From Bacteroidales bacterium (GTDB lineage: Bacteria; Bacteroidota; Bacteroidia; Bacteroidales; UBA3663), in NCBI GenBank assembly GCA_045545875.1, contig JAZQBS010000153.1, positions 6,530 to 70,529 of the forward strand: a stretch of DNA of 64,000 nucleotides. The letters run 5' to 3'. Positions within the stretch are counted from its first letter, which is position 1, and every line of letters begins with the position of its first letter. Positions 13,993 through 59,290 of this stretch are shown here, piece after piece. The notes under the pieces are model-generated. The model was not told the DNA's origin. It did not search any database and saw nothing but the letters and a program-made list of their open reading frames with translations. The position numbers and the translations under genes were made by a program.

Positions 13993-14000
13993 GTTGTTTT

Positions 14001-14136
14001 GGAGTTAACGGGAGTTAGCGCTTCGCGCGGGAGTTAACGGACGAATGTGTCTTGTGTCCCGATATTTATAAGGCGAAGGTATCGTCCGTTAACTCCCAAT
14101 AACTTCCAATAACTCCCGATAACTCCCAATAACTCC
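14001..14136. repeat. Inverted pair of phased arrays: GGAGTTA at 14001, 14011, 14030 and 5x TAACT(C/T)C at 14090-14130 (exact 10-bp period), with central hairpin ACGGACGA(14037)/TCGTCCGT(14082)
   Basis: Read directly. The architecture matches 261-423 but uses a different heptamer. Confidence 0.9.
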
Positions 14137-14166
14137 CAATAAATTATAAATAATAATTTTTTTGCT

Positions 14167-19989: not shown

Positions 19990-20733
19990 TTATTCTTCGA
20001 GAACCGAAATCTGCATGGTGATGTCGTCGACGGGACGATCACCAGGCTGGGTTTGGACAAGCTGAATCTTATCGACCACATCGAGACCCTCTTCTACTTC
20101 ACCAAAGACGGTGTAGTTCTGATCGAGGAAGGGTGTGCCACCAACGGTGGTATAGACCTCACGCTGCTCGGGAGTGTACTTGGGTTCGCCCTTCTCCTTG
20201 GCCAGGGCCATAGTCTTTTTCTGCAGTTCGTCCTGCAAGGCCATCAGGCCTGCGTTGTCGAGGTTCTTGCGCAACTGGATGATGCGACTGCGATTCTCGA
20301 CCACGAGGTCGTTGAAGATGTTCTGCAACTGCTGCTGAGCCATCTGACGCTCGAGCTGGGTGAGTTTGCCGGCACTGTAGATCTCGCCAGTGACGATGTA
20401 GAACTGGCTACCACTGGAACGCTTCTCGGGATTGACCTCGTCGCCCTGACGGGCAGCAGCGAGGGCTCCCTTCTTATGTATCAGCGACTTGTTGAACTCG
20501 GCAGGGATGGTGTAGTCGGGGCCTCCGGCACCGAGATGTGCAGTGGGAGAAGCTCCACGCGAATCGGGATCGCCACCCTGAACCATAAAGTTCTTGATGA
20601 CACGGTGGAAGAGAGTGCCGTCGTAATAGCCCTCGTGGGCCAACTTGAGGAAATTATCACGATGAAGGGGGGTCTCGTCATAGAGACGAACGGTGATGTC
20701 ACCGAGGGAGGTCTTGATCAGGACTTTGGACAT
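19990..20733 (-). CDS. Cyclophilin-type peptidyl-prolyl cis-trans isomerase with a helical insertion
   Basis: Motifs ...FHRVIKNFMVQGGDP... and ...YTVFGEVEEGLDVVDKI..., with an about 70-aa insert as in the paralogue at 55904-56716. Confidence 0.9.
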   Translation of the reverse strand: MSKVLIKTSLGDITVRLYDETPLHRDNFLKLAHEGYYDGTLFHRVIKNFMVQGGDPDSRGASPTAHLGAGGPDYTIPAEFNKSLIHKKGALAAARQGDEVNPEKRSSGSQFYIVTGEIYSAGKLTQLERQMAQQQLQNIFNDLVVENRSRIIQLRKNLDNAGLMALQDELQKKTMALAKEKGEPKYTPEQREVYTTVGGTPFLDQNYTVFGEVEEGLDVVDKIQLVQTQPGDRPVDDITMQISVLEE

Positions 20734-20964
20734 GGGTTATTTTTTGGGGGAAAGAGGATGAAGAGCAGCCATACACGGCTGCTGACGGGGACAAAGGAGG
20801 GGACAAGGCAGCCAAGGATGGCTGCTGACAAGGACAAAAGGGATGAGGGGGACGGAACGGGGTCAAGAATGGTTGTGCAAACCATTGCATTTGCAACAGT
20901 CAGATGACAAACATATGTTTTTCAACATATTTTTGAGGGAAATATGCAGTTTTTTATGGAAATA

Positions 20965-21077: not shown

Positions 21078-22283
21078 TTATTCGTACTCGAAAATACCGT
21101 TCTCGGTGTGGAGAGTGACCTTGGCACCTTCGGGACGAGCTTCGACGTGACCGATGACCTGTGCATCGATATTGAAACTGCGCGCGATGTCGATAACCTC
21201 CTGGGCAAACTGGGCAGGAAGATAGACTTCGAGGCGATGGCCCATATTGAACACCTTGTACATCTCGGACCAGTCGGTAGCCGACTGCTCGTGGATGGTG
21301 CGGAACAATGGAGGAATGGGGAAGAGATTATACTTGATGACATGCAGGTCCTTGATGAAGTGGAGCACCTTGGTCTGTGCGCCACCTGAGCAGTGTACCA
21401 TGCCGTGGAGGATGGAGTTCAAAGAGTTTGAGGGGTTTGAGAGGTGAGAGCGGAAGGCGTCGAGCATCTTCTTGACGACAGGGGCATAGGTGCGCGTGGG
21501 ACTGAGGACTAGCTTGCCGGCATCGAGGGGACTGCCCTCAACGGGGTCGGTGAGATGGAGCCCACCGCTGTAAACGAGGTCCTCGGGCACTGCATGATCG
21601 TAGGACTCGGGATATTTCTGCGCCAGATACTTGGCGAAAACATCATGACGAGCAGAAGTTAGACCGTTGGAGCCCATACCACCGTTGTATTCCTTCTCGT
21701 AGGTGGCTTGACCGAAACTGGCAAGTCCAACGATGACATCGCCTGCTGCGATGTTGGCATTGTTGATGACATCGGAGCGCTTCATACGGCAAGTGACCGT
21801 GGAATCGACGATGATGGTGCGTGCCAAATCGCCGATATCGGCCGTCTCGCCACCTGTTCCATAGACACCGATACCCATCTGACGCAGTTCGGCCATCAGT
21901 TCGTCGTTGCCATTGATGATGGCACTAATGACTTCGCCCGGGATGAGCATCTTGTTGCGACCGATGGTAGAAGAGACGAGGATATTATCGACAGCACCCA
22001 CACAGATGAGGTCGTCGATGTTCATGATGAGAGAGTCCTGAGCGATGCCCTTCCAAACAGAGAGGTCGCCGGTCTCCTTCCAATACATGTAAGCCAATGA
22101 CGTCTTGGTGCCTGCACCATCGGCATGCATGATGTTGCAGTATTCGGGATCGCCTCCGAGGATGTCGGGAATGATTTTGCAGAAAGCCTGAGGATAGAGG
22201 CCCTTGTCGATGTTCTTGATGGCGTTGTGCACATCTTCCTTGCTGGCACTTACGCCACGCATCATATATCTTTGGTCAGCCAT
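21078..22283 (-). CDS. purM: Phosphoribosylformylglycinamidine cyclo-ligase (AIR synthase, PurM family)
   Basis: Motifs ...HADGAGTK... and ...GGETA..., and a PurM-like C-terminal domain. The ATG at 22283 is preferred because the TTG at 22307 lies inside the TATCTTTG -7 box. Confidence 0.8.
   Translation of the reverse strand: MADQRYMMRGVSASKEDVHNAIKNIDKGLYPQAFCKIIPDILGGDPEYCNIMHADGAGTKTSLAYMYWKETGDLSVWKGIAQDSLIMNIDDLICVGAVDNILVSSTIGRNKMLIPGEVISAIINGNDELMAELRQMGIGVYGTGGETADIGDLARTIIVDSTVTCRMKRSDVINNANIAAGDVIVGLASFGQATYEKEYNGGMGSNGLTSARHDVFAKYLAQKYPESYDHAVPEDLVYSGGLHLTDPVEGSPLDAGKLVLSPTRTYAPVVKKMLDAFRSHLSNPSNSLNSILHGMVHCSGGAQTKVLHFIKDLHVIKYNLFPIPPLFRTIHEQSATDWSEMYKVFNMGHRLEVYLPAQFAQEVIDIARSFNIDAQVIGHVEARPEGAKVTLHTENGIFEYE
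21415..21450. repeat. Degenerate 4 x 9-bp array (GAGTTCAAA GAGTTTGAG GGGTTTGAG AGGTGAGAG) in-frame inside purM
   Basis: Same 9-bp unit family as 58470-58530. It encodes ...SHLSNPSNSLNS... on the minus strand. Confidence 0.65.
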
Positions 22284-22365
22284 AGAATTACGTTTTAGCG
22301 GGTGCAAAGATAGTGATAAAAAATGAACTCACCAAATTTTGCCCCCTTTTTCTTACTATTTCCAC

Positions 22366-23949
22366 TTAAAAGCACTGGGCGACGAGGGCATCGGCGCAGT
22401 GACAGCCATCCATAGCCGACGAAACGATGCCGCCTGCATAACCTGCACCTTCGCCACAGGGATAGAGACCGCGCACGGTGGGATGGCAGAACGAAAGCCT
22501 GTCGCGCGGGATGCGGACGGGTGACGAGGTGCGCGTCTCGGTGCCCACAAGCAAAGCTTCGGAAGTGAGGAAACCATGCGCACGACGACCGAAGTAGCGG
22601 AGGCCCTCCTGCATACGTGCACTGATGAACCTAGGCAGCCAGAAGTGCAACGGACTAGCCACGACACCCGGAGTGTAGGACGAAGCAGGGAGGTCGGCCG
22701 ACAAGCGACCATTGACGAAATCGGTCATACGTTGGGCAGGTGCTACCTGTGTGCGTCCACCATTGAGCCAACACTGATGCTCGATGGCCTCCTGAATAGC
22801 CATCATCGCCAAGGGACTACCGGGGTCGATGTCGAGATGGAGCTGGCTGGCGAGAAGCGGGATGTCGTCGACACGAATCTCGGTGACCATAGCCGCATTG
22901 GCCCAACGACCACCACGAGAACTGGCGCTCATACCATTGACGACAACCTGGTTTGAACTCGTAGCCGAAGGAACGATGACTCCACCGGGACACATACAGA
23001 AGCTATAGACACCACGATCGTCGGCCTGCGTGACGAAACTGTATTCGGCAGGAGGCAGGTACTGACCCCTACCCTCCTTGGAATGATACTGGATCTGGTC
23101 GATGAGGGTCTGAGGGTGTTCCAAGCGACAACCGATGGCCAGACCCTTGGCTTCGATGAGAATGCCTTCGTCGTGAAGCATCGTGTAGATATCGCGTGCA
23201 GAATGACCTGTGGCGAGGATGACGGGGCCCAAGAACTCACGTCCATCGAGGGTGGTGACACCAACCACCTTATCGTCGGAAAGGATCAAACGAGATACAA
23301 TGGTCTCGAAATGAATTTCGCCGCCACAAGCTAGAATGGTCTCGCGAATATTCGAGATGATGGAGGGAAGCTTGTCGGTGCCTATATGAGGATGAGAAGC
23401 ATCGAGGATGCCCGTGTCGGCTCCGAACTGGCACAAGCCTTCGAGCACACCCTGCACATTGCCACGCTTTCTGGAACGCGTGAAGAGCTTGCCATCGGAG
23501 AATGCCCCTGCCCCACCTTCGCCAAAGCAATAGTTGGAGTTGGGGTCAACGCGTTGCTCGCGGGTGATGAGGGCGACATCGCGACGACGATCGCTAACAG
23601 GGCGACCACGCTCGATAAGGATGGGACGAACGCCCAGTTCGATGAGCCGAAGGGCCGCGAACAGTCCACCGGGACCCGAGCCGACAACGATGGCCTGATG
23701 GGCATGGGAAGGCAATTCTTTATAAGCGACCTTGTGGAAAGTCTGCTGTGGAGGCTCCTCGTTGATATACAGATCGACGTCGAGCTGCACCATCACCTGA
23801 CGCTGACGTGCGTCGATGCTGGTGTGCTTCATACGCAGGCCGCGCAATGCCTTTCGACTGATGGCAAACTCGCGGCAGATCTGCGCCTCGAGTTGCTCAG
23901 CATCGCGCCATACCTGCGGGAGTACACGTATTTTGATATTCTTGATCAT
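22366..23949 (-). CDS. FAD-dependent oxidoreductase (COG2509-like uncharacterised dehydrogenase)
   Basis: Dinucleotide-binding motif ...IVVGSGPGGLFAAL... The ATG at 23949 overlaps the radA TGA (ATGA). Confidence 0.75.
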   Translation of the reverse strand: MIKNIKIRVLPQVWRDAEQLEAQICREFAISRKALRGLRMKHTSIDARQRQVMVQLDVDLYINEEPPQQTFHKVAYKELPSHAHQAIVVGSGPGGLFAALRLIELGVRPILIERGRPVSDRRRDVALITREQRVDPNSNYCFGEGGAGAFSDGKLFTRSRKRGNVQGVLEGLCQFGADTGILDASHPHIGTDKLPSIISNIRETILACGGEIHFETIVSRLILSDDKVVGVTTLDGREFLGPVILATGHSARDIYTMLHDEGILIEAKGLAIGCRLEHPQTLIDQIQYHSKEGRGQYLPPAEYSFVTQADDRGVYSFCMCPGGVIVPSATSSNQVVVNGMSASSRGGRWANAAMVTEIRVDDIPLLASQLHLDIDPGSPLAMMAIQEAIEHQCWLNGGRTQVAPAQRMTDFVNGRLSADLPASSYTPGVVASPLHFWLPRFISARMQEGLRYFGRRAHGFLTSEALLVGTETRTSSPVRIPRDRLSFCHPTVRGLYPCGEGAGYAGGIVSSAMDGCHCADALVAQCF

Positions 23950-25433
23950 TTGAACAAAAGACGGAAAGCCTCGTCGACACGCGCGACGGGACAAACCTGG
24001 ATCTTGAGCGTCTTTACATCGATGCTCTTGAGTGCAATATTTGGAATGAGAATACGTTCGAAACCAAGTTTCTCGGCCTCACGGATACGTTGCTCCAGGC
24101 GAGCCACAGGGCGTATCTCGCCCGACAGACCCACTTCGCCCGTCATACACGTAAGCGGAGGAAGCGGCATATCCAGGTTGGAAGAAAGGATGGCAGCCAT
24201 CACCGCCAGGTCCATGGCAGGGTCGGACACACGCAGACCGCCGGCAATGTTGAGGAAGACATCCTTCTGCGCCAATTTGAAGCCTACACGCTTCTCGAGG
24301 ACGGCGAGCAGCATGTTGAGACGACGCTGGTCGAAGCCCGTGGTGGAACGCATGGCGGTGGCATAGACGCTGGTGCTGACGAGAGCCTGCGTCTCGATGA
24401 GGAAGGGACGCATACCCTCGATGGCAGCGGCAATGGCGACGCCTGAGAGGTCCTTGTGATCGGAGTTGAGCAGGAGTTCGGAGGGGTTGGTCACCTGTCG
24501 GAGACCCGTGCCGAGCATCTCGTAGATGCCGAGTTCGGAGGTTGATCCGAAACGATTTTTGATGGCACGGAGGATGCGATACATGTAATGCTGGTCGCCT
24601 TCGAACTGGAGGACGGTATCGACGATGTGTTCGAGTACCTTCGGGCCTGCCAAGGAGCCTTCTTTGGTGATGTGACCGATGAGGATGACGGGCGTGCCCG
24701 ACTCCTTGGCAAACTTGAGGATACGGGCGGCACATTCGCGCACCTGACCAACGCTGCCTGCACTCGACTCGAGGTCATCGGTGGCGATGGTCTGGATGGA
24801 GTCGATGACGAGGATGTCGGGCTCGACATTGGCGACGTGGGTGAAGATGGCGTCGAGATTGGTTTCGCAGGCGATGTAGACGGAGTCGAGGGAAGGGGCA
24901 GCCAAAGACGGCTGCGGTGAAAGGTTCGAAAGGTTCGAGGGGTTCGAAAGGTTCGAGGGAAGTGAGGGGTTTGAAGCAAGGCGGGTGGCTCGGAGCTTGA
25001 GCTGGTAGGCGGATTCTTCGCCTGAACAATAGAGGACCTTATGGTCGTGAATGTTCATCACCGTCTGGAGGACGAGGGTGGATTTGCCGATGCCTGGGTC
25101 ACCACCCAGCAGAACCAAGGAACCGGGTACAAGACCACCGCCCAACACACGGTTGAGTTCGTCGTCGTGCATATCGATGCGTTGCTCTTCGCGCGCCTCG
25201 ATTTCGGAGAGACGGCGAGGACGCTCGTTCTGCCCAGGAAGTCCTAATGTTCCCCCATGACTCCACTGCACGCCACCCGACTTGCGGGAAGCCTTGCCAA
25301 TGGCACCCGTTTGGGTATCGACAATCTCTTCGACACAGGTGCCCCATTCGCCACACGACGGACATTTGCCGAACCACTTGGGCTCTTCGCAGCCACAGGA
25401 ACTGCAGAAATAGGCTGTCTTCTTCTTTGCCAT
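23946..25433 (-). CDS. radA: DNA repair protein RadA/Sms
   Basis: N-terminal zinc finger CSSCG...CPSCGEW, Walker A GGDPGIGKST, KNRFG motif, and a Lon-like C-terminal domain. Confidence 0.95.
   Translation of the reverse strand: MAKKKTAYFCSSCGCEEPKWFGKCPSCGEWGTCVEEIVDTQTGAIGKASRKSGGVQWSHGGTLGLPGQNERPRRLSEIEAREEQRIDMHDDELNRVLGGGLVPGSLVLLGGDPGIGKSTLVLQTVMNIHDHKVLYCSGEESAYQLKLRATRLASNPSLPSNLSNPSNLSNLSPQPSLAAPSLDSVYIACETNLDAIFTHVANVEPDILVIDSIQTIATDDLESSAGSVGQVRECAARILKFAKESGTPVILIGHITKEGSLAGPKVLEHIVDTVLQFEGDQHYMYRILRAIKNRFGSTSELGIYEMLGTGLRQVTNPSELLLNSDHKDLSGVAIAAAIEGMRPFLIETQALVSTSVYATAMRSTTGFDQRRLNMLLAVLEKRVGFKLAQKDVFLNIAGGLRVSDPAMDLAVMAAILSSNLDMPLPPLTCMTGEVGLSGEIRPVARLEQRIREAEKLGFERILIPNIALKSIDVKTLKIQVCPVARVDEAFRLLFK
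24923..24976. repeat. 6 x 9-bp array GGTTCGARR (24923, 24932, 24941, 24950, degenerate 24959, 24968) in-frame inside radA
   Basis: Read directly. It encodes ...SNPSLPSNLSNPSNLSNLS..., a segment absent from the E. coli RadA sequence as I remember it. Confidence 0.85.
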
Positions 25434-26334: not shown

Positions 26335-26380
26335 TAGCTATAGTGGCAATTGTAACTATATTTACTATAGTGAATATAAA

Positions 26381-26419
26381 ATAATCCCCTCCATTTCCTC
26401 AAAAAATGGAGGGGATTAT
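26381..26419. terminator. Bidirectional terminator hairpin (14-bp stem ATAATCCCCTCCAT / ATGGAGGGGATTAT)
   Basis: Lies between convergent genes and is flanked by A/T runs. Confidence 0.7.
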
Positions 26420-26434
26420 TTTGTGAAAAGGGTA

Positions 26435-35053: not shown

Positions 35054-36544
35054 ATGAACGCAACACTGGTACTGGGCGTCATCGTCCTTTACTTCCTGAT
35101 GGTGTTCGGCGTCAGCTGGTGGACTACCCGCCGACGTGACCGCGACACCGAAACCTTCTATCGTGGCGATCGCAAGAGCCCCTGGTGGGTGGTGGCGATT
35201 GCCATGATTGGTACATCTATCTCGGGCGTGACCTATGTGAGTGTGCCCGGCATGGTCGAGGCGAAGCAGATGAGCTACATCCAAATGGTGATCGGTTTCG
35301 TCTGCGGCTATTTTGCCGTGGCATATATCCTTCTGCCCCTCTACTATCGCCTTGGTCTTTCGAGCATCTACGTCTATCTGGAACAGCGCTACGGGCGCTA
35401 TGCCCACAAGACGGGTGCTGCCTTCTTCCTCCTGAGCAAATATCTCGGCTGCGCGGTCAGGATGTACCTCACAGCTGTCGTACTGCAACTTGTGCTCTTT
35501 GACCAACTGGGCGTACCCTTCGGCCTATCGGTGGCCTGCATCATGCTCATCGTCTGGTTGTACTCGTTCCGTGGCGGTGTGAAAACACTCGTCTGGACCG
35601 ACCTGCTTCAAACCCTCTGCCTACTGGCAGCTATGATTGGCTTTGTGATTTGCATCAGTTCGGCCATGGGATTGGACTTCAAGGGACTGTGTGGCACTAT
35701 AGCCGAAAGCCCGATGTCGAGGGTGTGGTTCTTCGACGATGCCAACGACACGCGCTACTTCTGGAAGCAGTTCCTGGGCGGCATGTTCACGACCATCGCC
35801 ATGACGGGTCTGGACCAGGACATGATGCAGAAGAACCTCTCGTGCAAATCGCTGAAAGAGGCTCAGAAGAACATGGTCTCGTACGGCTTCGGATTCCTAC
35901 CCGTCAACATCATCTTCCTTTCGCTGGGTATATTATTATATATGTACGCGCGAGAAGTGGGCGTTGACAAGAGCGGAGACGAGCTCTTCCCATATCTTGC
36001 GACAGGCATCAATCCAACCACGGGACAGCCCTTCCTACCCCTCATCGTGAGTGTGCTCTTCGTCCTGGGACTGGTTGCCGCCGCCTTCTCGTCGGCAGGA
36101 TCGGCAGTGACAGCGCTGACGACAGCCATCATGGTGGACTTCCTGCGCAAAGCGCCCAGTGGGGAAGGTTCGAATGGTTTGAGGGGTTCGATAGAAGGCA
36201 AACGTTTCTGGGTGCACATCATCAACTCCATCATGATGGGATTCATGATCTACCTTTTCCATCTGCTGGCATCGGGCTCGGTCATCAACGCCGTCTATGT
36301 TGTGGCATCCTACACCTATGGTCCGCTCATCGGACTCTTCTTCTTCGGTATGTTCACGAAGTGCAAGGTGAAGGACGGATGGTGGATACCGATGATCTGC
36401 ATCGCTTCGCCCCTACTCTGCTGGATTCTCGACCAAAACTCCGAAGCGTGGTTCAATGGTTATAAAATCGGCTACGAGATGCTGCTGATCAATGGAGCAC
36501 TGACAGCGTTAGGACTGCTGGTTGCTTCGATGAGAAAGAACTGA
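35054..36544 (+). CDS. Sodium:solute symporter (SSS) family transporter
   Basis: About 13 TM segments with SSS-type N-terminal region. The ATG follows the GH43 stop directly. Confidence 0.8.
   Translation: MNATLVLGVIVLYFLMVFGVSWWTTRRRDRDTETFYRGDRKSPWWVVAIAMIGTSISGVTYVSVPGMVEAKQMSYIQMVIGFVCGYFAVAYILLPLYYRLGLSSIYVYLEQRYGRYAHKTGAAFFLLSKYLGCAVRMYLTAVVLQLVLFDQLGVPFGLSVACIMLIVWLYSFRGGVKTLVWTDLLQTLCLLAAMIGFVICISSAMGLDFKGLCGTIAESPMSRVWFFDDANDTRYFWKQFLGGMFTTIAMTGLDQDMMQKNLSCKSLKEAQKNMVSYGFGFLPVNIIFLSLGILLYMYAREVGVDKSGDELFPYLATGINPTTGQPFLPLIVSVLFVLGLVAAAFSSAGSAVTALTTAIMVDFLRKAPSGEGSNGLRGSIEGKRFWVHIINSIMMGFMIYLFHLLASGSVINAVYVVASYTYGPLIGLFFFGMFTKCKVKDGWWIPMICIASPLLCWILDQNSEAWFNGYKIGYEMLLINGALTALGLLVASMRKN
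36167..36193. repeat. 3 x 9-bp GGTT(C/T)GANN units in-frame inside the SSS transporter gene
   Basis: GGTTCGAAT GGTTTGAGG GGTTCGATA encodes ...GSNGLRGSI... in a predicted loop. Confidence 0.6.
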
Positions 36545-36636: not shown

Positions 36637-36709
<73 letters not shown>

Positions 36710-37888: not shown

Positions 37889-38431
37889 TTAAGCTTCGGC
37901 AGAGGTTTCAGCGGCAGCAGCCTCAGCAGCAGCGGCAGCCTCAGCAGCAGCGGCAGCAGCCTTAGCAGCAGCCTCAGCCTTCTTGGCAGCCAGAGCCTCA
38001 GCCTTGGCGTTCTTCACTGCAACCTCAGCATTGGCAGCCTCCTTCACCTTCTTGGCAGCTTCGGCAGCAAGGCCAGAGATCTTAGAAGTGATCTTAGCCT
38101 CCTTGGCTTTCATCCAAGCGTCGAACTTAGCCTGAGCCTGCTCGGCGGTGAGGGCACCCTTCTTCACACCTCCGTTGAGGTGCTTCATCATGAGAACACC
38201 CTTGTAGGAGAGAATACGACCAGCGGTGAGAGTGGGCTGTGCACCAGTCTCAACCCAGTAGAGGGCGCGATTGAAATCGAGTTGAATAGTAGCAGGGTTG
38301 GTGTTGGGATTGTAAGTACCGATCTTCTCAATATACTTACCATCACGTGGCGCTCTGCTATCTGCGACTACGATGCTGTATACAGCGTAGTCCTTGTGAC
38401 CATGTCGTGCAAGACGGATCTTTGTAGCCAT
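37889..38431 (-). CDS. rpsP: 30S ribosomal protein S16 with Ala/Lys-rich C-terminal extension
   Basis: N-terminus [42 protein letters not shown]... Confidence 0.95.
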
Positions 38432-39186: not shown

Positions 39187-39258
39187 CAACTCCATCTATA
39201 ACGCAAGATTGTCGCGAAATGGAATAAGCGGGATACAAGATTCCCTTTCTATAATCGA

Positions 39259-39712
39259 GGCATAGCCATTTTGCGCCAAGGTTGGGTATTCTACTATAGA
39301 AGCATACCCTTTCTTGGCCAAAATTGGTTATGCCTCTTTCGAATAAAGCACTCTGACGGCCGACAGAGTGCTTTATCCAGTCGAAGTATACCCTTTCTTA
39401 GCCGAAATTGGTTATGCTACTATCTGCGAAAGCACTCTGACAGCCGCCAGAGTGCTTTATCCAACCGAGGTATACCCTTTCTTGGCCGAAATTGGTTATG
39501 CTACTATCGCCGCATACCCTTTCTTGGCCAACTTTGGTTATGCTCCAATCGGCGAAAGCACTCTCACGGCCGACAGGATACTTGCTTCCATCGGAGAATG
39601 ACCATTCTTAGCCAAAAAAGGTTATGCCTCATTCGAAAAAAGCACTCTGACGGCCGACAGAGTGCTTTATTCGTTCGCGGCATAACCAATCTTGGCGCAG
39701 ATTGGTTATACG
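39259..39712. repeat. Mosaic tandem array with 84-bp period of two alternating hairpin modules (A: GCATACCCTTTCTTGGCCRAAATTGGTTATGC; B: AAAGCACTCTG-ACGGCCGA-CAGAGTGCTTT)
   Basis: A copies at 39302, 39386, 39470, 39512 and about 39598. B copies at 39345, 39429, 39555 (degenerate) and 39639. A terminal perfect palindrome lies at 39682-39709. Confidence 0.9.
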
Positions 39713-53459: not shown

Positions 53460-53497
53460 GATGATTTTAAGTGGAATAATTAACAGTAACATTATCT

Positions 53498-53577
53498 TCT
53501 AGAGTATCTAGATGATCTAGAGCTTCTAGAGTATCTAGATTTTCTAGATTTTCTAGAGCTTCCAGAGAGCATCTAGA
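53498..53577. repeat. 9 x about 9-bp tandem array with palindromic core TCTAGA (53498, 507, 516, 525, 534, 543, 552, degenerate 561, 572)
   Basis: Read directly. It fills the 137-bp gap between the GH43 stop and the GH9-like start. Confidence 0.9.
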
Positions 53578-56814: not shown

Positions 56815-58299
<1,485 letters not shown>

Positions 58300-58469
58300 T
58301 TAATCCTTTTAAAATTACAATCAGTGAATCGTAACGTTTGAATTTTATTGCCTGCAAAGATAGTTGTATTTTTCGAAATAAACAAATTATTAGTGGGAAA
58401 TTTTCGTTTTCAGGCGAAATTTCCCACTTTATGCGAACGATTGAAATCTGTGATATGAGATTAAGAGGG

Positions 58470-58530
58470 GGTTCGAAGGGTTCGAAAGGTTCAAAGGGTT
58501 CGAAAGGTTCGAGGGGATGAAGGGTTCAAT
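58470..58530. repeat. About 7 x 9-bp tandem array GGTTCGARR (58470, 479, 488, 497, 506, then degenerate), palindromic core TTCGAA
   Basis: Read directly. It is intergenic except that its last degenerate unit contains the stop codon of the 58526-59290 gene. Confidence 0.9.
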
Positions 58531-59290
58531 CTCTCTTCTTCACCTGCGGGAGGAATTCAGCCTCAAGCTTGGCATAGTTCTCGACAAACCACTTGTGCCA
58601 ATAGCGTGTCATCTCACCATGGGTCTGGCCCATGATACCTTCGTCGTACGACACACGCTTGCCAATCTCGATGCACTCTGGTCCTGGATTCAGGCAGAAA
58701 TCCTTCTTGGGCAGCAGATAGCCGGTGCCGAAGATAGTGACGGGAACAATGTCGCACTTCAGCTGTTCGGCCAGATGAAAAGCGCCACGACGGAACTTAT
58801 GTACCTGGCAATCTTCCGAGCGGGTGCCTTCGGGGAAGATGAGCACCGAATATCCACGTTTCATACACTTGCTGATGTGTGCCAGCATCTCTTCCATCGA
58901 CATCGTGGCCGGGAAGAAATCGGCAAACCTTACCACATGGCCGTAGATCTTGCTATCCCACACCCATTGTCCCGTCATCACAATAAGACGATTGGTGAGC
59001 ATCAGCGTTGCAGGAAGGTCGAGCAGCGACTGATGGTTGGCAATGATAAGTGCAGGCTTCTTGAAGGTCTCTTCATGCGGGTTGCGCAAGATCGGGTTCA
59101 CCTTGGTCACGCAGTGATAGGAGAAGAAGCGGCAGAACCTGCGTATATGTCGATGCAGACGATAACGCACACGTTCATTATCGCCAAACCAGGCATAGAT
59201 CCTGGCCAGGGGGGCAATGATGAAGAAAATGTATCCGAGCAGGATGCCAAATTCAAGATATGTTATTATAAGTCTGAACCAACGTGGCAT
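58526..59290 (-). CDS. Lysophospholipid (1-acyl-sn-glycerol-3-phosphate) acyltransferase family protein
   Basis: HX4D motif NHQSLLD and ...FPEGTRS... Confidence 0.8.
   Translation of the reverse strand: MPRWFRLIITYLEFGILLGYIFFIIAPLARIYAWFGDNERVRYRLHRHIRRFCRFFSYHCVTKVNPILRNPHEETFKKPALIIANHQSLLDLPATLMLTNRLIVMTGQWVWDSKIYGHVVRFADFFPATMSMEEMLAHISKCMKRGYSVLIFPEGTRSEDCQVHKFRRGAFHLAEQLKCDIVPVTIFGTGYLLPKKDFCLNPGPECIEIGKRVSYDEGIMGQTHGEMTRYWHKWFVENYAKLEAEFLPQVKKRD

Follow-up and report, generated by a model that had tools for sequence, protein, structure and literature searches.

A dispersed nine-base-pair repeat family as the probable source of an in-frame insert in radA of a rumen Prevotellaceae relative

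Neisseria genomes contain intergenic mosaic elements (NIMEs) in which dRS3 repeats of the form ATTCCC-N8-GGGAAT flank RS units, and in cyanobacteria, as reportedly described by Mazel et al. in 1990 and Elhai et al. in 2008, heptamer arrays (short tandemly repeated repetitive, or STRR, sequences) hold nested small dispersed repeats (SDRs). Repetitive extragenic palindromic (REP) elements are short, abundant and dispersed imperfect palindromes that often stand in mosaics with other short motifs (PMC3116915), and Rickettsia palindromic elements (RPEs) are repeats that lie in frame inside unrelated housekeeping genes and encode a peptide compatible with the fold of the host protein (PMC10969869). 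Here we describe an insert in radA, the gene of the DNA repair helicase RadA/Sms, in a 64,000-nucleotide stretch of a Bacteroidales bacterium (contig JAZQBS010000153.1), which we call the window and whose host is a rumen Prevotellaceae relative, judging from its 95.7% DNA identity to the rumen genome RUG465. The insert, an array of the nonamer GGTTCGARR beside a small hairpin, is probably one member of a repeat family that is scattered through the genomes of this lineage. The family would consist of nonamer satellites, which are prone to slippage, and of small hairpin modules, and it lies in permissive loops and untranslated regions (UTRs). The best reading is that it represents tolerated repetitive DNA and not something that RadA evolved for itself. 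Searches of the full-text literature gave no relevant description of the repeat string, nor of in-frame 9-bp tandem repeats in Prevotella.

The radA gene (positions 23946 to 25433, minus strand) encodes an intact protein of 495 amino acids (aa), as seen from the list of open reading frames (ORFs), from Pfam and from a match in the Protein Data Bank. Within it, plus-strand positions 24923 to 24958 read GGTTCGAAA GGTTCGAGG GGTTCGAAA GGTTCGAGG, four exact GGTTCGARR units that take the form CCTCGAACC or TTTCGAACC on the sense strand and encode the peptide SNL or SNP. A preliminary description of this DNA had placed six 9-bp units at 24923 to 24976; its coordinates were exact, but only four of the units are, as GAAGTGAGG (24959 to 24967) has four mismatches to GGTTCGARR and GGTTTGAAG (24968 to 24976) has one, a C-to-T change at the CpG. 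It had rightly put the array in frame, as the intact 495-aa ORF contains it, and had rightly linked it to a second array with the same unit and the same period at 58469 to 58527. Tandem Repeats Finder (TRF) reported a period of 9, and also a period of 18 with 2.1 copies, 100% match and a score of 74. The two-unit pattern GGTTCGARRGGTTCRARR matched 10 times in the 64-kb window when up to two mismatches were allowed (0.04 expected; 0 of 100 shuffles reached 10), and three-unit runs stood at three sites in the window, compared with none in 20 block shuffles. In these head-to-tail copies above chance, and in a unit length that is a multiple of three with the frame and all domains of RadA kept, the array looks like a coding variable-number tandem repeat (VNTR). 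Any copy number of the 9-bp unit stays in frame and all radA alleles are full-length, which sets the array apart from a phase-variable contingency locus. It is not an assembly artefact, because three independent assemblies have the radA array and the family occurs in isolates, for example Prevotella sp. P3-122.

The Pfam domains of the host protein (Zn_ribbon_LapB, AAA_25, ATPase/KaiC, ChlI and Lon_C) and its catalytic motifs are all intact, it matches Streptococcus pneumoniae RadA (5lkm) at E=6e-125, and it is 42% identical to Escherichia coli RadA. The linker peptide ASNPSLPSNLSNPSNLSNLSPQPSLAAPSLDSV lies between LKLRATRL and YIACETN, just where the preliminary description had located the array, and comprises the 33 codons A153 to V185 (24879 to 24977, minus strand), a hypervariable loop of the ATPase core that starts from the helix ending in LRATRL, which follows the Walker A strand, and leads into the next strand, YIACETN. 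A comparison of the sense DNA of seven alleles indicated about 78 extra nucleotides (N155 to P180; 24894 to 24971, minus strand) relative to an empty allele whose linker is the 8-aa GSDSLDSV (P0027/L114). The loop has 7 aa in E. coli K-12 (GLPTDNL), which bears out the approximately 8 residues given for that species in the preliminary description, and about 4 aa in S. pneumoniae. In an AlphaFold2 (AF2) model built from a 50-sequence alignment, a confident helix (142 to 154) and a confident strand (185 to 188) enclose residues 156 to 179, which have a predicted local distance difference test (pLDDT) score below 50 and no secondary structure. The model as a whole is poor (mean pLDDT 58.5; predicted template modeling score 0.43), and only its local contrast around the insert was used, a low-confidence coil between confident elements. 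Both the model and the alignment place the insert in a loop of naturally free length, and no new function of RadA is implied. The preliminary description had called the host gene essential, which radA is not: it is called dispensable in bacteria (PMC9129000), and viable null mutants have been studied (PMC6755099).

Among 120 RadA homologues, the linker is non-repetitive and 7 to 10 aa long in distant Bacteroidales and non-repetitive and 7 to 42 aa long at 83 to 90% identity, and it reaches 79 aa at 89 to 99% identity; the length of the insert ranges from 0 to 79 aa. Invariance and presence in distant relatives, which the preliminary description had named as observations that would count against it, were therefore not what the alignment gave. 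The closest genomes among the matches listed are the rumen metagenome-assembled genomes (MAGs) RUG465 (95.7% DNA identity over 4.6 kb) and RUG11585 (90.8%). There are five exact units in RUG465 and in the P0001 cluster, four in the window and in RUG11585, and one in P0122, which belongs to the same 90% protein cluster. Unit number thus differs between close strains, as in a coding VNTR, and since near-identical radA genes hold one, four or five exact units, the array slips in 9-bp steps and the predicted frame-preserving expansion is borne out.

Expansion in place is only part of the history, however, as unit number changes but genes that are 94 to 98% identical also hold unrelated linker content or none. 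In all array-bearing radA alleles, a hairpin of the form GCAGCC-N6-GGCTGC stands directly 3' of the array on the sense strand, with a constant stem and the loop variants GTCTTT, ATCTTT, ATCTAT and GTGTAT, and encodes part of QPS(L/M)AA. In the window it reads GCAGCC-AAAGAC-GGCTGC (24898 to 24915; QPSLAA), and every filled allele has it, so the insert described earlier as an array is indeed one but also includes an 18-nt hairpin that is itself dispersed. Some alleles have CCTCAAACC units beside the hairpin, others CCYTCGYCC units, and others again one to four copies of a 51-bp module composed of 33 pyrimidine-rich bases and the hairpin, while the empty allele P0027, which represents a 47-member cluster, has GSDSLDSV only. 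Outside the linker, the window, RUG465, RUG11585, the allele with four 51-bp modules and the empty allele are 94 to 98% identical, and three linker states coexist among them: a nonamer array, four 51-bp hairpin modules, and nothing. A second radA clade at 86 to 87% identity also has the hairpin and the array, and because hairpin and position are common to all filled alleles, including this clade, the hairpin insertion is old. The array content beside the hairpin changes much more quickly than the gene does. In a linker-masked radA tree the empty allele falls within the filled ones, and its state is most simply read as a secondary loss.

The insert is thus a composite of array and hairpin. Three copies of GCAGCC-N6-GGCTGC occur in the window (20765, 20808 and 24898; none expected), and 14 in 378 kb of related Bacteroidales loci, mostly beside G-rich 9- to 10-bp arrays. 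It is a short, dispersed, imperfect palindrome, as are REP elements and the hairpins formed by REP doublets (REPINs), but the copy at 24898 to 24915 is translated inside radA and not extragenic. The second module, of about 31 nt (CTTCCCTCGGACGCGACCAACGGGAGCAACC; consensus CTTCCCTCGGACGCGACC(A/G)A(C/A)GGGAGCAACC), recurs almost unchanged at four loci that are unrelated to one another, with a nonamer array after it each time, and in one purM allele (L126) it is in frame as LPSDATNGS (27 bp). The 11-nt string CACTTCCCTCG precedes the exact radA units on the sense strand and also starts the second module of that purM allele, a match that is only suggestive, given about 0.5 expected by chance in the 2 Mb searched. 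The "fifth unit" of radA, GAAGTGAGG, is part of this string and looks like a remnant of the 31-nt module, again no more than suggestively. A 9-nt direct repeat, TCGAGGGAA (24886 to 24894, with a second copy at 24953 to 24961, plus strand), brackets the hairpin and the exact units and may be a microhomology or a target duplication. Of palindromic structure the radA insert has only the internal 18-nt hairpin, and it shows neither the terminal inverted repeats nor the fixed length of a miniature inverted-repeat transposable element (MITE), although, as with MITEs or RPEs, there are many dispersed copies, some of them in frame in unrelated genes (radA, purM and a symporter gene). An Rfam scan of the whole window found only a tRNA (36637 to 36709), and no repeat module matched a curated RNA family.

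The same unit recurs across the window, which holds three clear arrays and one decayed array in 64 kb where none would be expected. The non-coding array mentioned above (58469 to 58527, plus strand; about 6.7 copies by pattern search and TRF) starts at the stop codon of an acyltransferase gene (58526 to 59290, minus strand) and lies upstream of the IMP dehydrogenase gene (56815 to 58296, minus strand); we do not term it a 3'-UTR element, because a terminator scan of 58250 to 58600 called nothing. An array of three units (36161 to 36199, plus strand) is in frame in a sodium:solute symporter gene (35054 to 36544, plus strand), where the G-rich strand is the sense strand (GEGSNGLRGSIEG) and the units read GSN-GLR-GSI. 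Symporter relatives at 89 to 96% identity have 3 to about 12 G-S/L-R/K triplets derived from GGTTCGARR or GGTTTGAGR, and others at 91% identity have a non-repeat loop. The decayed array (21414 to 21446, minus strand) forms the in-frame 11-aa insert HLSNPSNSLNS in purM (21078 to 22307, minus strand); an alignment showed that this insert is absent from the 3mdo structure sequence, and purM relatives have either 2 aa at the site (QE, HE or HD, the empty state) or 13, 16, 19, 22 or 28 aa of SNP/SNL units. Neither the purM array nor the symporter array of the window has the hairpin. Hence radA is not a special case, as purM, the symporter gene and many genes in related genomes carry the unit in frame. 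Accordingly, the locus-specific origin of a coding VNTR does not apply to a unit that is also present at 58469, 36161, 21414 and at least 113 loci elsewhere.

A composite of two hairpins (20765 to 20782 and 20808 to 20825) and GGGGACAARG repeats, found by pattern search (20734 to 20866, plus strand), immediately precedes the start codon of a peptidyl-prolyl isomerase-like gene (19990 to 20733, minus strand; named from its translation only). In RUG465 the orthologous position is occupied by a short GGTTCGARR array. In all five single-orientation arrays (24923, 36167, 58470, 21414 and 20734) the G-rich strand is the plus strand, whatever the direction of the host gene; the GC skew of the window (0.0001 overall; -0.04 to +0.06 in 8-kb blocks) is unusable for a leading- or lagging-strand assignment.

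Beyond the window, a search for three exact units in one genome per species found GGTTCGARR arrays at no fewer than 113 loci. Many of the matches listed came from Prevotellaceae and Bacteroidales of the rumen or gut, where a single genome can have several loci (RUG465, RUG11585, RGIG6006 and RGIG7607) and an array as many as 22 units. Coding arrays use the unit in three different frames, and it occurs on either strand and outside genes as well: most coding arrays are read in the SNP/SNL frame, some as EPF/EPL and a few as RT(F/L), and GS(K/R) also occurs, so no conserved peptide repeat underlies them. The use of several frames, both strands and non-coding DNA shows that this is a DNA-level phenomenon and excludes that one peptide was selected. 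At ten loci (L001, L029, L037, L053, L054, L064, L067, L089, L100 and L103), non-coding arrays end about 2 to 33 nt from CAT, a reverse-strand ATG, so that the mRNA could have a C-rich array just before its start codon. The variant units seen most often, GGTTTGARR and GGTTCAARR, are those that arise by a transition at either base of the CpG in TTCGAA, and they suggest deamination of methylated CpG. Variant units are seen in the window arrays at 24968, 36176 and 58488 and at L012 and L116, and whole CCTCAAACC arrays exist. No viral contig among 2.9 million matched three units, so there is no sign of a phage vector, and a metagenome scan with a radA-specific 20-mer (the 3' half of the hairpin and the array start) gave one match, a chance one in an unrelated GC-rich contig.

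A further property of the unit may explain why it is prone to slip. GGTTCGARR consists of the palindromic hexamer TTCGAA and three bases (RRG), and adjacent copies are predicted to form TTCGAA-NNN-TTCGAA mini-hairpins with 5- to 6-bp stems and 3-nt loops (z of -2.7 to -4.7 relative to shuffled sequence). For the radA block, none of 200 shuffles folded as well on either strand (z of -3.7 and -4.7). Hairpin-assisted slippage is therefore a plausible engine. Other nonamer families in the same genomes are also built from a palindromic hexamer and three bases, namely TCTAGA+3 and CTATAG+3, and the tandem-repeat period at related loci is predominantly 9 (with 18 and 27) and then 10.

Taken together, these results lead us to favor the following course of events, in which a family likely to be at home in rumen Prevotellaceae colonizes permissive loops and untranslated regions. 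The sequences show that a block of hairpin and array entered the RadA loop before two radA clades, today about 13% diverged, separated from each other. The array then gained and lost 9-bp units, its CpG often became TG or CA, and the linker content was exchanged as a whole in some lineages and deleted in one or more. Units would be gained and lost by slipped-strand mispairing, promoted by the mini-hairpins that adjacent TTCGAA palindromes, 3 nt apart, may form. The one, four or five units of radA, the 3-aa length steps of purM, the 3 to about 12 units of the symporter and the predicted mini-hairpins are in line with this. Coding arrays would persist only if their period is 9, they stay free of stop codons and the encoded peptide, mostly Ser-Asn-Pro/Leu, falls in a length-tolerant loop, and for this reason the RadA insert is presumably neutral or nearly so; the varied length of the loop across bacteria, the low-confidence coil, the intact RadA motifs and the variable non-repeat loops of other Prevotella-type relatives support such permissiveness. 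New loci would be seeded and old linkers rewritten by copying from other genomic copies, through template switching or gene conversion at hairpins or short homologies, a route that we tentatively favor over dedicated transposition.

Several observations weigh against this course of events. All 22 arrays that lie unambiguously in long ORFs have the C-rich strand as the sense strand, a count from which a filter dropped the ambiguous cases, and a classification by the codon usage of the flanks gave 20 C-rich sense arrays and 6 of the opposite kind. This bias is real and strong although not absolute, the symporter of the window being a counter-example, and neutral slippage alone does not predict it; peptide tolerance, transcription-linked instability or a directional mechanism could each produce it. 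Multi-locus families of this unit also occur in phyla that are not related, among them Acidobacteriota and, in one MAG, Bifidobacterium, which a lineage-specific selfish family does not explain and which may reflect convergence or a mechanism in common. The comparisons of filled and empty radA and purM alleles did not capture a seeding event, as they revealed replaced flanking codons and no clean insertion or target duplication, and the TCGAGGGAA direct repeat, overlapping the repeat unit itself, is weak evidence of one. Finally, that the RadA insert is neutral is something that we infer, and the AF2 model, with its low mean pLDDT of 58.5, lends no support to surface exposure in the hexamer.

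An active miniature mobile element is a rival explanation that we regard as unlikely. The hairpin modules and arrays would then be non-autonomous and be moved by an enzyme whose gene lies elsewhere in the genome, for example a REP-associated Y1 transposase or a reverse transcriptase. It is similarly improbable, in our judgement, that transposition produced the inserts in radA, purM and the symporter gene and that linker replacement reflects repeated insertion at the hairpin. A mobile element would fit the near-identity of the 31-nt module and its array at four unrelated loci, the dispersed hairpin with its conserved stem and variable loop, the unrelated linker contents of 94 to 98% identical radA genes, the orthologous position at which the window and RUG465 have repeats of different kinds, the strand bias of the arrays relative to transcription, and the 9-nt repeat TCGAGGGAA around the radA block. 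Against this, element length is not fixed and terminal inverted repeats are lacking, the filled and empty pairs of radA and purM show no clean target-site duplication, the window purM and symporter arrays are without the hairpin, no candidate enzyme came to light, although no search was aimed at one, and the 2.9 million viral contigs gave no match.

A bolder version of this idea, and one that we consider doubtful, is that rumen Prevotellaceae possess an active system for writing, and later rewriting, short tandem arrays beside very small hairpin modules. With equally slight expectation, such a system might be enzyme-driven, or templated from RNA or from a hairpin, and place the same nonamer into dozens of genes in a fixed orientation to transcription. 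The recurrence in Acidobacteriota and Bifidobacterium could then stem from a mechanism that is widespread and has a preference for GGTTCGA, which is the tRNA T-arm sequence. If this were true, the arrays and modules would rank with the smallest mobile units known from Bacteroidota and be a standing source of loop-length variation in housekeeping proteins such as RadA, PurM and transporters.

It is very unlikely that each array arose locally from a chance seed by slippage, with no copying between loci, so that the shared unit would reflect nothing more than the expandability of a palindromic hexamer plus three bases. The TCTAGA+3 and CTATAG+3 families of the same genomes, the amplification of the same unit in unrelated phyla, the mini-hairpin predictions and the native radA flank TCCCTCGAC, which resembles a unit, all speak for such an origin. 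Yet dozens of loci per lineage share, besides TTCGAA, the GG and purine spacer, GGGGTTAAGA-type neighbor units and the hairpin modules; the cores of the nonamer arrays represent only 3 of the 64 possible palindromic hexamers; and in radA the hairpin stands between the array and the putative native seed.

That the Ser/Asn/Pro-rich segment was selected to tune RadA, in its hexamer dynamics or partner binding, with copy number as functional tuning, is scarcely credible. In favor of this, the frame of the insert is kept across about 13% DNA divergence and the SNP/SNL frame predominates in coding arrays; against it, an insert-free allele that represents a 47-member cluster stands among filled ones, close relatives have had the linker replaced wholesale, most bacteria have 4 to 10 aa at this loop, and the same DNA occurs in non-coding regions, in unrelated enzymes and, in the symporter, on the other strand.

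Other repeat elements in the window and at related loci share features with the family. The TCTAGA+3 family is represented in the window by a strongly self-pairing array at 53497 to 53567 (about 7.9 copies, TTCTAGAGT-type; z of -4.3), and the same type occurs at L010 (two sites), L048, L064 and L100. For CTATAG+3, a TATAG(T/C)CAC nonamer array (L045, 1208 to 1255; L114, 664 to 729; L115, 691 to 729) sits on the side of a short-chain dehydrogenase gene away from radA in relatives, and on the same side of a dehydrogenase-like ORF the window has a perfect hairpin with 19-nt arms (26378 to 26422) instead, at what may be the corresponding site. Acidobacteriota MAGs (L024, 7290 to 7481; L027, 5517 to 5842; L098, 4277 to 4470) contain long hairpins of the form (GGTTCGARR)n, short loop, (YYTCGAACC)n, which are apparently intergenic and present at many loci per genome.

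Two elements of the window consist of inverted arrays around a core. At 248 to 427, 10-bp arrays of the TCTAAGGGAT type (about 4 to 5 copies) and of TCCCTTAATA (4.6 copies) surround a 73-nt core with CGCTTCTCTCGGACGTGACCGAAAGG, which resembles the second module of purM alleles, and AGGCGGAGGTAACGTCC; there is no Rfam match, and TAAGGGAT/TCCCTTAA arrays of this type recur at L001, L019, L028, L030, L043 and L044. The element at 13998 to 14142 has the same design but another unit: its left arm consists of GGGAGTTAAC copies, its right arm of TAACTCCCAA (5.3 copies), and the core between them ends in AGGCGAAGGTATCGTCC. Sequence related to the second module forms part of both cores, and the arms are complementary, arm sequence differing between the elements while pairing is kept. 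A mosaic of about 450 bp (39256 to 39711) alternates a ATACCCTTTCTTGGCCAAAATTGGTTATGC-type module with the hairpin AAAGCACTCTGACGGCCGACAGAGTGCTTTAT in about five repeats, with periods of 84, 126 and 210 bp and an overall inverted symmetry that recalls a bacterial interspersed mosaic element (BIME). An imperfect CAGCAGCAGCCT-type repeat stands at 37909 to 37980 (TRF periods of 6, 9, 12, 18 and 21).

If the radA insert is indeed one copy of a dispersed family, abundant rumen bacteria tolerate one short repeat inside core enzymes and keep reshuffling it, and wherever sequences are aligned, trees built or pangenomes compiled, such segments will wrongly be taken for divergence or for low-complexity linkers. 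The arrays would also be ready strain markers, as copy number differs between genomes that are at least 95% identical, and would provide, gene by gene, a map of insertion-tolerant protein loops. Because filled, differently filled and empty states coexist in public data, the family would further offer a tractable case for how short repeats colonize loci, a question that is open for REP, STRR and RPE sequences alike.

How, then, does the family compare with those already described? In Neisseria, an inverted repeat with a variable center punctuates other repeats, much as GCAGCC-N6-GGCTGC does at 20734 to 20866, L001 and L037, but NIMEs are intergenic and consist of 50- to 150-bp segments and not of nonamers, and no link to phage integration was seen here. 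Coding minisatellites or VNTRs likewise have head-to-tail units in multiples of three and unit-number polymorphism with the frame kept. Ordinary VNTRs are locus-specific, however, whereas the unit described here is present at dozens of unrelated loci, on both strands and also in non-coding DNA, and whole arrays of it are swapped or lost.

With cyanobacterial STRR/SDR repeats the family shares a short tandem unit at many loci, embedded 20- to 30-nt hairpins and a coherent group of genomes. The STRR heptamer does not keep a reading frame and its arrays are mainly intergenic, while the unit of the window has 9 bp and is often in genes; the host is a rumen Prevotellaceae relative and so belongs to another phylum, and there is no sequence similarity. 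The GCAGCC-N6-GGCTGC hairpin behaves like REP, REPIN and BIME sequences, although REPs are by definition extragenic and 20 to 40 nt long, and the hairpin, at 18 nt, lies in coding sequence and is tied to nonamers. As in RPEs, a dispersed family stands in frame in unrelated housekeeping genes, and the radA block holds a palindromic hairpin; RPEs, on the other hand, are defined elements of about 100 to 150 bp with a conserved encoded peptide in hosts outside Bacteroidota, while the insert of the window is a variable-length nonamer array with optional hairpin modules of 18 to 31 nt and a polymorphic copy number. In its behavior the family thus most closely resembles RPEs, the STRR/SDR repeats of cyanobacteria and the REP/BIME mosaics, and it departs from each of them in a defining feature, namely the fixed length of the first, the heptamer unit of the second and the extragenic location of the third.

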